Below are positions 4,546 to 13,465 of a stretch of 13,489 bases of DNA, one piece after another. The stretch covers positions 1-13,489 of the forward strand of contig NW_021826144.1 of assembly GCF_006345805.1 (NCBI RefSeq), given 5' to 3'. Source of the stretch: Octopus sinensis. Lineage: Eukaryota. The translations under genes were made by a program, and so were the position numbers. Each line of letters begins with the position of its first letter. Positions within the stretch are counted from its first letter, which is position 1. Under the pieces are notes generated by a model. It was not told the DNA's origin, searched no databases, and saw only the letters and a list, made by a program, of their open reading frames with translations.

Positions 4546-6337
4546 AATTTTATTACTACCCACAAGGGGCGAACATAGATGGGACAGTACAGTCGGGGAA
4601 CTTAAAATAAGAAAGCGAATGACAAGAAAAGGAAAAAATAAAAGTAAAAAATGACATATGAAAGAATATTTACAATGAGATGTAAATGCCCACTCGATCC
4701 CCGGAATCGAGAGGTTACATTTTCGTCACATATATTTCACAAAATTTTCTTTTTTTTTTTTTTTCTTCTTTCTTCTCTCTCTTCTCACAATTCTATACGT
4801 ATTCCATAATAGCTTTCAATTCTCTAAAGTCAATCACTGAGCCCTCAGGCAGCCGCTCTCTCACTCGAACACTCGTGTAAAATATTACACTCTCTCCGGC
4901 AGCTCTGAGGAACTCAGCGACTCTTTCTTCGGGGATTAGAGCAGTCTCCTGCCACTGATCGGTCATCCTGTTGACCCATATATGTCCCTCCGTATTACAT
5001 GTCAAGTCTTTCATTTCGGGCAGAAATGGAAGGTTATTAACTTGTAGTAGCAGTAATCTTGTTTCCGTCCTACGTTTTCCCTCGTTTTCTTTTCGGGCTT
5101 ATTTTCTTCTCTTCCTTGTTCTCCTCTCTTTGTTTCTCTCTTTCTCTCTTTTTTTGCCTTCTTTTCTTTCTTCTTCCTTCTCTTGTTTTTTGGTTCTTTG
5201 TCTGTTCTCTCTTTTCTTCTCGTTTTATGTTCCTTTTCTTTTTCTTTTTTGTGTGCCGTCTTTTCTTTTCGTTTGATTCTGATCTTTCTCTTGTTTTTTT
5301 CCTGTTGGTTCTTTTTTCCTTTTTTTTTTTTTTTTCCTGACTCTTTTTGGTTCTATTTCTTTCTTTTCTTTTATTTCTTTTTCCTTCATTGACTTATTAT
5401 TTCCTTTCTCTTGTTGTTTTGTTTCCTTTTCTATGTTTTTCTTTTTATTTACCGTATTCTTCTTTTCTTCAAGTTCCTGCTCGCACTCCGCTACGAATTC
5501 GTATAACGGGCACTCTTTTTTAATGTGCCCCCTTGTCCCGCACAAGTAGCAGTTTGGCTTTCTTCCCTCTACAATTACACTGAGGTTTTTCTCATCTTCA
5601 ATTTCTATTCTGTAGGGGAACCTTTCAATGTCCTCTTTTGTGGCCATCAAACACAGTTCTACCCCATATCCTCTCCAGTTTACCGCGTTGGACTCCTTAA
5701 AGGATTCCACCTCCACTTCCTCTTCTGCTGCTCCTAGAATAGCTGTTGCCAGCCATTCTGTTTTCACTTCTGGGGGTATATTCGGGATTTTAACCCGGAC
5801 CCCTCTTCTTCCTTTTATGAGGGCCACATTATAAATGTTTCCGCTCTTAGTACAGTGGTAGCCAGTGAGGCTGCAATTTCTTCCGTTGCACATCTCACCT
5901 CCACCGTACCAAATTTCTTTCCTCTACTCACGTAGGTCGATTTCCCCATTATGTCTCCCAGACATTTTTCGATTTCGGCTATCTCCACTCTTGCCAGTTT
6001 CTTCGTATTTTTGTCTTGGGTTCTATATGTCACTGTCTTGTTTTCTTTGTCCTCTTTTGCTTTCGCGGGGGGATTAGCTTCACGCTATCACCCTCCCTTT
6101 GAATAGCTTTTCATATTCTTTGAGTTTACTTTTCTCAAAGAAAACATCCTTCACGATTATCGACGAATCATTATTTTTCTTTCCCGTGACCCCCGCGTAA
6201 GTCGCCATGACTAGAGGGTCAATTCACCTTCTTCGGAAGGTTTCCACACGTGGAGGCAAACGCCTCGCTGCGATATTAATCACTTTACACAACAAAATTT
6301 CAACGTCTAATCACAGATAACAACACACTTGGGTAAA
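4546..6337 (-). mobile_element. ORF1-only non-LTR retroelement of L1/Tx1 type (non-autonomous, HAL1-like)
   Basis: Degraded ORF1 with a CCHC knuckle, followed within ~250 bp by the same 3' terminal motif as the LINE at 6429. Candidate TSD TTTCCTC(C/G)ATGT at 4534-4545 and 6338-6349 (11/12 match). Confidence 0.72.
4793..6208 (-). pseudogene. LINE ORF1 (gag-like nucleic-acid-binding protein), frameshifted
   Basis: Start MATYAGVTGKK at 6208. Consecutive minus-strand ORF pieces 5815-6033, 5225-5893 (CYLCGTRGHIKKEC = CX2CX4HX4C, then a K/E-rich tract) and 4793-5014. Several frameshifts and stops. Confidence 0.8.
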
Positions 6338-6428
6338 TTTCCTCGATGTGTTCGAATCTTTTTTCTCTACATTGTATACTTTATAGACAATAGTCTTTTC
6401 TTTAATTTAATTTTTTATTATCCATCTG

Positions 6429-7800
6429 TGTTTTATTATTACCCACAAGGGGCAGACAAAGAGGGGACAATACAACCTGATGTGGGGTCAGATTCTCGGA
6501 TGGGGTTACAAAAAGGATGAGATTAAAAATTCAAAATTTCACAAAAATGCAAAAATTATAAAATCGAATGAAAAAACAGACCGGAAGACATTACAGGTGG
6601 AGTGGGGGCGGGTTCAGCTCGGACCCCGACCCCACGAGCCCCGCCTCACCACTGATACTTTTGGTTTCGTTCTGATTTACATTTATGTGTGTCATTCTTC
6701 CAACTTCCGTGCTACTCCTTCCATCGTTCTTCATACACTCTTTTAGTCAGGCATTTTCTCTCCAGCCCTATCTTCCTTTTCAGGTGGTAGATGAAGTAAT
6801 TCATCAACCCAGGGCCGGATATGAACTTGCCTGACCGTATACCTTTCATTCTCGTCTTCCATATCACCTCTTTCGCAATTGCTACCACAACGAGAAAACA
6901 AATTCTTACCTTCTTTCGCGAGGAAATCTGGTGGGTCAATTTTTTTAATACACTCAGTCGACAGCTGTACTCTTCGTGTGCTTGACAACAGCTGTTCGGC
7001 ATAAACCCACCCTCAGACACGACCGACAATGAACAATAGCGTGCGGGACGGTTTCCCTATCCCGCCCGCATCTTGGACACATCGGACTGTCTTGGCCACC
7101 GTGCCTTGCGAGTTTATCCCGAACAGGTAGAGCTCCTCTGTAGCATTGCCATGCCAGAGACTTCTGGAAGTTGTCCAGTGTCTTCGGCTCGAACGTACGT
7201 CGGAACAGACTGGCCAGCTGATTATCGTCGAGACCCAGGGTTTCCCCCAAGGTGTCCTTCACATTTCGCCTCTACCAACCCTCTATAGAAGAATGTGGTG
7301 GAACCCCCCACCGCAGCGTTGCCCGAGCGACGGAATAGCAGGAGAGCCTTGCGACACTCCGTATACCATGTGCCCAGTTTCGATTTACGATTCAACCAGG
7401 TTTCCCATCCACCGAAACAAGTGAACTTGGGACATCCGTTCTACTAGCGAAGACCACACCCGTTCACCATCCAGGTAGAGCCACAGATGTCTTAACCTCA
7501 GCGCATGTTTGCGCATCATCAGCCGCATCATCCATAGCCCAGCCCACATCATAGCCCACCCTTTAACGGTTGTTGACAGCAAGTAGAGCGTTTCACAAGT
7601 GTTTTCCCGCCCTTCCACAAGAAGTAGAAGAGCTGTCTTTCCAACTTGGTCAACCACGAATCAGGGCATGGAACGACGGAAAGGCGGTAGGTGATAACCG
7701 ATGCGATAAACACATTGGCCACCTCCGCCCTCCCTTTCAGGGATAGCCACCGCCAAGACCAGGTCTTGGCTACTGCAGCCACCCTGCTCGTTACCTCGCC
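6429..7800 (-). mobile_element. 5'-truncated L1/Tx1-clade LINE
   Basis: Perfect 20-bp TSD AATTTTTTATTATCCATCTG at 6409-6428 and 7801-7820. Contains the ORF2 C-terminus and a 3' UTR ending GCCCCTTGTGGGTAATAATAAAA. Confidence 0.92.
6712..7800 (-). pseudogene. LINE ORF2 C-terminal region (post-RT thumb region and zf-RVT-like Cys motif), frameshifted
   Basis: WSWRWLSLKGRAEVAN...FLWKG...QPLKGGL, then LAWQCYRGALPV...CPRCGRDRETVPHAIVHC, then AKEVIWKTR. These motifs are typical of L1/Tx1 ORF2. Confidence 0.9.
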
Positions 7801-8099
7801 AATTTTTTATTATCCATCTGGACTACTCCATATCTGCACGCTAATTTTATTTTTAATTTATTCCCATTCATGTGAAACCACTTATTCAAGTTCAAGTCAT
7901 TCATGCAATTTTATACCAATTGCTATTTTTACTTTTGTTATGTTACGATTATATTATACTTTAGTTTGATTTTAATTATTACTTACTACATATAATTCAA
8001 TTGTTATTATTTTTATTGTTAAAATAGAGACATAAAATAGAGAAATATTTTTGTTTCACTTTTAACACGTAATACTGAAATTGTGGAGAAGATATGATA

Positions 8100-12283: not shown

Positions 12284-12669
12284 TCTATATATATAAAGCT
12301 GAAGTTGTCTGGGTGGCTGGTTTGGCAGCCTTCAACTAATACTATCTCCTCCGAGACCCTGCGGCGCAAGTTGACCAAAATTGACAGTATGATGGAAGAA
12401 GGCTTGCTCTTCATTCCGTAGAAGATAAAATTCAAATTGGACCATGTTAACACCAAAAATTATTTACATCAAAAAGGTGCTTTTTTTATGAAAATCCCTA
12501 TTTTTTACGATTTTTTGACTGCTGTGTCGCCACTTTTCGGTGTATTTCAACCAGAAAAATGTTCACTTAAAGAGGATAACAAGCTACATAATGCAAAATC
12601 TTTACTTTTCAAAAATTCCAATTCTAAAGGTTCGAAACAAACCCGAGCAACACCGGGCGATACTGCTAG
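12284..12669 (+). mobile_element. complete 386-bp non-autonomous Helitron
   Basis: A|TCTATATATATAAAGCTGAAGTTGTCTG ... hairpin CCCGAGCAACACCGGG (12642-12657) ... CTAG|T, with no TSD. The reconstructed empty site matches the paralogous junction near 12995. Confidence 0.88.
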
Positions 12670-12922
12670 TGTTTCTTTATTAGCCAAACAGGGCTGAACA
12701 CAGAGAGGACAAATTACAAAGTAGAGCTTTTCTTTTGGGGGAGAAAAAAAAAGTGGGGTGTAGGTTTTCGATCAAAAAGGATCGTAAAAACAAAAAAAAG
12801 ACGATCAATAAGGGATCGTGTATCACAGAAATGTCATGATGTAAAGTGTTATGGGGGAAGCAGATAAGGTTTATCCGTGGAAAGAAAAGCCTACGGAAAA
12901 GACCACGGTATCCTCGGTCAAT
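12670..12922 (-). mobile_element. LINE 3' UTR fragment (second L1/Tx1-like family), copy 1
   Basis: Homologous to 12995-13280. Carries a variant of the shared 3' terminal motif (TGTCCTCTCTGTGTTCAGCCCTGTTTGGCTAATAAAGAAACA). Confidence 0.75.
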
Positions 12923-12994
12923 GATAGATAGATAGATAGATAGATAGATAGATAGATAGATAGATAGATAGATAGATAGATAGATAGATAGATA
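12923..12994. repeat. (GATA)n microsatellite
   Basis: Seen directly. Confidence 0.97.
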
Positions 12995-13465
12995 TGTTTC
13001 ATTATTAGCCACACAGTGCTGAACACAGAGGGGACAAATTACAAAGTAGAGCTTTTCTTTATAGGGAGAAAAAAGAAAAGAAAAAGAAAAAGAAAGAGAA
13101 AAAGAAAAGCGGGGTAGGTTTTCGATCAAAAGGGATCATAAGAAGAGAGGGGAAAAAAGCGATCAATAGGGGTCGTTTATCACAGAAATGTCAAGATGTA
13201 AAGTGTAAAGGGGGATAGAGATAAGGTTTATCCGTGGAAAGAAAAGCCTACGGAAAAAAAAACCACGGTAACCTCAGTCAATAATGTCACATGTTAACAC
13301 ATTCATTTGCAAGTAAGTAACTCTCTGTTTTAAATTTTTCCGGGTTAGTAGGATTATGCTCAAGGTGGCTTCGTCATTCATACGTGCCATCCTTGCTATA
13401 TTCACCCATTTTTTTTGAAACATTCGCTAGACAAGACTTGCCTCTCTACTCTCACTCTCCTTTTA
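12995..13465 (-). mobile_element. LINE 3' fragment, copy 2, with ORF2 C-terminal remnant
   Basis: Same 3' UTR as copy 1. Minus-strand translation from ~13464 gives KRRVRVERQVLSSECFKK(frameshift)WVNIARM, similar to KRKIGLERKCLTKRVYEERW at the end of the ORF2 in 6429-7800. (GATA)n resumes at 13466. Confidence 0.75.

Follow-up and report, generated by a model that had tools for sequence, protein, structure and literature searches.

A 45-nt 3' tail in place of poly(A) on several LINE families, ORF1-only elements and an abundant SINE of Octopus sinensis

The 13,489-nt stretch of DNA analyzed here (hereafter the window) belongs to the octopus Octopus sinensis (assembly GCF_006345805.1, contig NW_021826144.1, positions 1 to 13,489 of the forward strand) and carries long and short interspersed nuclear elements (LINEs and SINEs), together with an element that holds only the first LINE open reading frame (ORF1), in all of which the same short tail sequence recurs. 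All the elements described in this paragraph lie on the minus strand. A non-autonomous repeat of about 1.1 kb, which from its termini we take to be Helitron-like, occupies positions 4070-8356 and is split by two insertions. One is a full-length ORF1-only element of about 1.79 kb (family H; 4546-6337), with ORF1 frameshifted in this copy and the shared tail at 4546-4592 (stem-loop 4558-4570); its target site duplication (TSD) measures 12-13 bp, with a 3' copy at 4534-4545 that shows one mismatch to the 5' copy at 6338-6350, and the site is empty in host copies. The other is a 5'-truncated copy of a LINE, family A (6429-7800), made up of the frameshifted end of ORF2 (zf-RVT, E = 1.7e-8), the 3' untranslated region (UTR) and the tail (6429-6475, with the stem-loop GCCC-CTTGT-GGGT at 6441-6453); it is bounded by identical 20-bp TSD copies at 6409-6428 (3') and 7801-7820 (5'), a sequence that is single in the empty host copies. 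A multimer of the SINE that we call SINE B follows at 8362-9003, where a head and three 184-bp core units, with B-box-like words at 8550, 8734 and 8918, are interspersed with two internal copies of the shared tail (8772-8816, stem-loop 8784-8796; 8588-8632, stem-loop 8600-8612, one substitution) and end in a different tail. Finally, two 5'-truncated copies of LINE family D, the 12677 copy (a 3' end at 12670-12922, with the tail variant AGCC-CTGTTT-GGCT at 12682-12695) and the 13002 copy (12995-13465), are separated by a (TATC)n target array (12923-12994), and another array starts at 13464.

When both strands of the window were scanned, the tail motif was found on the plus strand at 4557, 6440 and 8783 (exact) and at 8599 (one mismatch), a second variant was found at 12680 and 13005, and the minus strand gave no site; all six sites listed in the initial annotation are thus present and on one strand. 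In the sense of the minus-strand elements, the motif reads TGTCCC..N..GCCC-CTTGT-GGGT-AATAA. Across the 2.72-Gb genome, its 18-mer GCCCCTTGTGGGYARTAA is matched exactly 110,399 times (55,037 and 55,362 on the two strands), and the reversed 18-mer, used as a control, not once. The motif constitutes the last ~45 nt of a LINE lineage, of ORF1-only families and of SINE B, with a mean column identity of 73% over 18 aligned tails, and each family has its own stable variant. In most families an AATAAA lies in the stem or immediately behind it; the commonest SINE variant has AGTAAA in its place. No relatives were found in a metagenome scan. A single 45-nt tail stands in place of poly(A) on several LINEs, on ORF1-only elements and on an abundant SINE.

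In insertions that carry the tail, the element stops some 12 nt beyond the 4-bp stem and abuts a TSD of 7-23 bp. The best 30 genomic copies of LINE A all stop 10-12 nt past the stem, without poly(A), and the TSDs of H and LINE A copies outside arrays begin at +10 to +12; runs of at least eight A residues behind the stem were met in 1/42 A, 0/29 H, 2/109 B, 0/35 D and 0/30 E tails. These insertions are without poly(A), unlike those of the relaxed, mammalian-type L1. In the case of the SINE, the first 100 listed matches to the 18-mer on contig 1 corresponded to 99 distinct sites, all of which (99/99) fell within SINE B, and the motif as an independent mini-repeat was therefore rejected. Twenty-eight of these sites were internal to multimers and 71 were not. 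Among the 44 non-internal copies for which the head was found, 29 showed a TSD of 10-23 bp, beginning exactly 12 nt after the stem in 19 of them and at +10 to +12 in 24; as the automatic caller gave false short hits in multimers, only this stricter SINE set was counted. The earlier proposal that the motif marks 3' junctions beside TSDs was borne out in LINE, ORF1-only and SINE families, with internal sites existing as well. The SINE B tails at ~8595 and ~8779, which had been read as 3' ends, turned out to be internal, each being followed by another SINE unit.

Full-length LINE A measures about 5.2 kb and has two ORFs, with 5'-truncated copies and TSDs of ~7-20 bp; an intact 1132-aa ORF2 was recovered in 2 of 20 long loci, in both cases with Exo_endo_phos, RVT_1 and zf-RVT domains (an N-terminal APE endonuclease and a C-terminal CCHC). 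The closest solved relative of ORF2 is human L1 ORF2p (E = 3.5e-68, with R2 at E = 2.7e-25), in a comparison whose matches included no CR1, L2 or RTE protein, and the nearest named relative comes from Argonauta hians (63%). The sister families E, F and G were found by searching with outside proteins, ORF2 identity among the four (A, E, F, G) being 56-83%. They form a monophyletic group, joined to the Argonauta protein with a support of 0.999, in a tree of 72 reverse transcriptase (RT) sequences which, like the homologue lists, consists of proteins other than named Tx1 or L1 references. Two more families, A2 and X2, came up in flanks and have a version of the tail at their ends, and in its 3' region family D shows 72-85% likeness to G. 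In all, the tail terminates at least six LINE families (A, A2, D/G, E, F and X2). A CCHC knuckle in ORF1 is a feature of the Tx1 clade; that of LINE A lies below the Pfam cut-off, with the motif visible. By its domain architecture and its best solved relative, the lineage is assigned to the L1/Tx1 group as a whole, with Tx1 and L1 clades undivided, in agreement with the placement first suggested. The initial annotation had also supposed one RT with several passengers. The family represented by the 12677 and 13002 copies belongs instead to sister autonomous LINEs with intact ORF2, so that tail sharing among LINEs reflects common descent with a conserved end.

Several further observations concern these LINEs. 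Two loci (L057, L062) hold a LINE with an ORF2 ~79% identical to that of family A and with another 3' UTR and tail variant. The 5' leaders of full-length LINE A copies at L062, L064 and L065 contain short pieces that resemble earlier target duplications, are themselves used as targets, and recall 5' tags or extensions. A tandem of nearly identical LINE A units repeats every ~3.57 kb at G000:C9:76.607-76.624 Mb (L003-L007, L080), which may reflect duplication or an assembly artefact. At loci of families F and G (L202 near 7284, plus strand; L203, L205, L207, L210), a longer hairpin with a GCCC-CTTGT-GGGC core does not sit at a 3' end but seemingly within the 5' part of an element; it is similar to the third SINE tail and counts against the motif being confined to 3' ends.

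The ORF1-only family H has the traits of a HAL1-like element, namely an ORF1 that is intact and homologous to the ORF1 of an L1-group LINE, the absence of ORF2, and TSDs on full-length copies. ORF1 is open over 465-483 aa in 9 of 30 copies, and no ORF2 remnant was detected in these 30. At the DNA level, H and LINE A are 88-91% identical over the last 44-47 nt and share two short patches of 71-74% inside ORF1, while the two ORF1 proteins are 34% identical over 231 aa (E = 3e-41); the CCHC knuckle of H ORF1 is above the Pfam cut-off. High identity restricted to the tail, together with the lack of any match between the LINE A 3' UTR upstream of it and families E, F and G, confirms that the neighboring UTRs are unrelated between families. 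There are several further ORF1-bearing families, each with its own tail variant.

SINE B is putatively tRNA-like and contains a B-box-like word, and it probably resembles the octopus OR2 CORE-SINE. ARAGORN and Rfam gave nothing but microsatellite noise, and neither detected a tRNA. A run of four T residues is absent from 24 of 34 SINE monomers. As a separate observation, two loci (L067:7063-7129 and L118:1301-1367, both on the minus strand) and random stretches (L281-L320) show the SINE core ending in AGGC-CTTGT-GCCT and TGGC-CTTGT-GCCA, in which the loop CTTGT is kept and the stems are compensated; no LINE partner was found for these tails.

Host copies elsewhere in the genome (n = 29) fix the insertion junctions and show that the motif belongs to the elements, since 28 of them have no recognized insertion of a tail family in this stretch, the remaining one carrying at the H site what looks like the 5' end of an element. 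The elements are also covered by contigs from four sequencing runs, in which the empty-site joint is visible. Four of the 28 (L225, L237, L239, L241) hold a different insert of ~0.5 kb at the window LINE A site. The window also carries a long host form (4246-4545, 6351-6408), with a ~300-bp insert that is absent from the short form and that, by eye, is like a decayed piece of these ORF1 genes. A second Helitron-like 3' end (hairpin and CTAG) at 12655-12669 abuts the tail of the 12677 copy, the first being at 201-215.

The tail abuts the Helitron-like host or the 5' part of another element in 27/29 H and 24/42 A copies, taken from best-hit lists rather than at random and with tandem and segmental duplicates included. 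(ATT)n stands behind 30/30 E tails and TATC-like repeats behind 23/35 D tails; X2 tails are mostly followed by (ATT)n, and those of F, G and D mostly by (TATC)n. TATC repeats were also seen by eye at the 5' break in ~10 of 30 D loci, and the repeat is therefore a target and not only a tail. A preference for microsatellite or repeat targets, a trait of the Tx1 clade, is present in this lineage, and partially so in family A (24/42). ORF1-only and LINE copies also form head-to-tail arrays, with a duplication of 7-16 bp at the junctions and often within one Helitron-like repeat, and mixed-family arrays exist, such as that at L079 with four different elements. Head-to-tail arrays are known from HeT-A as well. 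Among the 5'-truncated LINE A copies in the host, which were considered for hitchhiking, three apparent truncations were internal deletions or rearrangements, most loci stopping short of the 5' junction.

Once the SINE-context ends had been set aside (16 of 71 in the first sample, a few of them wrongly flagged, and 19 of 46 in independent loci), the first bases of the target were seen to follow the tail variant. SINE tails with T after GGG continued with GG in 15 cases and AG in 4 (n = 40), and those with C with GG in 1 and AG in 7 (n = 15; p = 0.0025); in independent loci the GG:AG ratio was 10:1 for T (n = 19) and 0:3 for C (n = 8; p = 0.011), and the pooled values were 25:5 and 1:10, respectively (p = 2.5e-5). 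GG lay inside the duplication in 8 of 16 TSD-confirmed T-variant ends, against a background of 3.7% (p = 3e-8), and in 5 of 8 TSD-confirmed ends at the independent loci. Within SINE multimers, GGTAT comes after the T variant and, in most cases, AGAA after the C variant. Genome-wide, the tail followed by GGTA[ACG] was counted 2,685 times for the T-AGT form and 99 times for the C-AAT form, the ratio of the two variants in the sample being 61:16. Sub-variants of LINE A behave similarly, with CAGAT directly behind the tail in 7/9 vs. 0/4 copies. The first target bases thus follow the tail variant and equal those that follow it in SINE multimers.

The tail is probably an RNA handle that the LINE enzyme binds instead of poly(A), with copying starting ~12 nt further on, where the RNA would be paired through its read-through flank. 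In this scheme, the ORF2 protein would bind the tail stem-loop of transcripts that run past the tail into the flank; such read-through is expected because the AATAAA lies inside the tail, so that the flank would be where cleavage occurs, and because a T4 terminator is missing from most SINE monomers. The nicked target DNA would then pair at +12 with two to five bases from the flank of the parent, and copying from that point would omit both the flank and any poly(A). If flank bases pair with the nicked DNA, daughters would favor sites like that of the parent, the parent's own junctions included, and such likeness could feed arrays, SINE multimers and microsatellite specificity. More tentatively, we put forward the wider picture of a poly(A)-free L1/Tx1 lineage in an animal. 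The RNA of the parent's flank may act there as a short guide, so that target preference would be inherited from the locus and not from the protein only, and one tail may drive LINEs, ORF1-only elements and more than 100,000 SINE tails into self-growing arrays.

A number of observations weigh against the handle or against the flank as guide, and several of them concern the stem-loop, which the initial annotation had placed in the motif. Compared with shuffles, the hairpins of nine LINE, ORF1-only and SINE B tails have no extra stability (z from -1.27 to +0.69), alternative folds exist for LINE A, H and one SINE variant, and the stem of the 13002 copy is broken by one substitution. The part of that proposal that stood is a modest amount of compensatory change. 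Because a first MAFFT alignment had misregistered the stem, pair counting was confined to ungapped 24-nt pieces from the families with a 5-nt loop, D, F and G being left out; in the 12 family-level tails, 93.8% of the stem cells are paired. One stem pair occurs as C-G, G-C and A-U, the A-U form characterizing LINE X2 at the family level; the covariation score is matched in 3 of 500 shuffles and is destroyed when the pairing partners are slid. The outcome depends on the tails admitted: with two other SINE tails of unproven homology added, three of the four pairs covary and none of 500 shuffles reaches the score, and with the uncertain SINE tails left out, covariation is reduced to one pair and two events, one pair being likewise obtained in 132 of 500 shuffles. 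A small hairpin with a conserved loop, bound by protein as in L2 tails, has modest support on these sequences. The tail also holds AATAAA and TGTA words, so a constraint from 3' processing could explain part of its conservation.

To the same side of the balance belong the internal tails, which make up 28 of the 99 sampled in SINE B and both of those in the window, where tails stand behind units 1 and 2 and the copy's own end is the other tail near 8362. The search for a LINE partner of the SINE with two outside ORF2 proteins gave only families E, F and G. As to the targets, 18 of 42 LINE A ends lie outside recognized ones, and the A and H samples are of the kind described above; the class of ends starting with TA is independent of the variant (13/40 T, 6/15 C), and about half of the listed matches to the tail with GGTA[ACG] end in C and may be internal junctions. 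Pure H arrays are 98.7% alike within and 97.6% between arrays, which fits tandem duplication too; local duplication or local re-insertion therefore contributes to them.

The main rival explanation accepts stringent recognition of the tail but has the targets set by the endonuclease of each family, the variants differing through the mobilizing family or the period. The sharp targets of the sister families, (ATT)n for E and TATC-like repeats for D, speak for it, as do the NNTA shape common to many target starts and the fact that the long and short host forms were hit at nearly the same distance from the shared upstream sequence despite differing downstream. In crocodilians, Tx1 and SINEU families differ in site preference likewise (PMC4494074). 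Against it, the target starts are the very bases found behind the same tail variant in SINE multimers, and LINE A sub-variants that are 95-99% identical differ in the bases behind the tail; we consider this explanation unlikely. Less likely still is that the tail is kept as a polyadenylation or termination signal by a relaxed, poly(A)-reading enzyme, the SINE having acquired it once by template switch without needing it. AATAAA within or right behind the stem in most families, the unremarkable hairpin and the spread of the same SINE core with other tails would suit such a signal. Opposed to it are the insertions without poly(A), the ends fixed at ~+12, the AGTAAA of the commonest SINE variant, the compensatory stem changes and the copies that stop at a tail which in multimers has further units behind it. 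We give hardly any credence to the motif as a DNA target, for instance a SINE end, that receives LINEs without being part of them: nearly all genomic copies do sit on the SINE (99/99 sampled) and other repeats are described as targets of Tx1-type elements (PMC4494074), but the motif lies inside the TSDs, is missing from empty host sites and occurs as stable family-specific variants, and the empty sites and TSD positions led to the rejection of this candidate.

The window harbors further repeats. A Tc1/mariner-like DDE transposase fragment is present at 1333-1839 on the minus strand (Pfam DDE_3, E = 0.06, below the cut-off). Another abundant SINE has three copies (3421-3773, 9687-10095 and 11637-12128), and part of its sequence corresponds, in reverse complement, to a further tail carried by the same type of core. 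An inverted repeat resembling a miniature inverted-repeat transposable element, with 68-nt arms that are 85% complementary, lies at 10254-10519.

Stringent L1-clade tails are reported for three SINEs in all: ZmSINE2/3 with LINE1-1_ZM in maize and sorghum, and SINEX-3_CR with L1-1_CR in Chlamydomonas (Ohshima 2012, PMC3472496; PMC3747384). The octopus elements resemble these pairs in having an L1-group LINE, a conserved stretch of the last ~45 nt and a SINE that shares it, with a hairpin that shows modest signs of compensatory change, and differ in belonging to an animal, in ending without poly(A) or poly(T), and in having ORF1-only passengers, targeted insertion and arrays. With crocodilian Tx1-Mar and SINEU (Kojima 2015, PMC4494074) they have in common hot spots in a non-autonomous DNA transposon, tandems that sandwich TSDs, 5' extensions derived from the target and sister families that target microsatellites; SINEU is described as ending in poly(A), with no LINE found to have its 3' terminus, whereas in octopus the tail is shared, poly(A) is absent and the host is Helitron-like. 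ORF1-only elements are known from the L1, CR1 and Jockey clades (HAL1, HeT-A and Ag-Sponge; PMC5786205), and like them H has ORF1 only, derives from a LINE clade and depends on an autonomous partner. It differs from them in sharing ~45 nt at the 3' end with a partner whose ORF1 is 34% identical, and in forming interstitial arrays separated by TSDs. In SART1Bm and R1Bm, annealing between RNA and target fixes the start of reverse transcription (PMC7265360); in octopus too, the nicked target would pair with a small number of RNA bases located at the 3' end or just beyond, but these would come from the flank of the parent and differ by subfamily, whereas R1Bm and SART1Bm have one fixed target repeat. 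The L2 tails of zebrafish and eel (PMC4176376) likewise have a small 3' stem-loop whose loop is conserved and whose stem can be exchanged; they belong to another clade, and binding has been shown for them by experiment, that in octopus being inferred.

The octopus OR2 CORE-SINE goes back to Ohshima and Okada 1994, as cited in PMC4758252, and no LINE partner for its tail appeared in the literature searched; the partners of bivalve SINEs are CR1, CR1-Zenon, L2 and Nimb. A recent octopus annotation recognizes 13 recently active L1-Tx1 families, and the sections available to us do not mention tails. No description of the octopus tail was found in the literature searched, which did not extend to Repbase or Dfam, and the repeat library of PMC13282606 may hold these families. 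Each ingredient has a precedent, and we found no published account of their combination in an animal or of a target choice linked to the tail variant.

It remains open whether the L1-type enzyme was ancestrally a reader of poly(A) or of a specific tail, a question for which the cited sources offer plant and algal examples so far (PMC3472496; PMC3747384). The question becomes testable in an animal lineage that has intact ORF2 copies, stem variants of natural origin and passengers of two kinds, and the same lineage is the likely engine of one of the most abundant SINEs of this genome. If flank-guided priming were true, it would explain the fast change of targets in Tx1-type elements and would provide an entry point to L1-type enzymes in which the RNA partly determines the insertion site.

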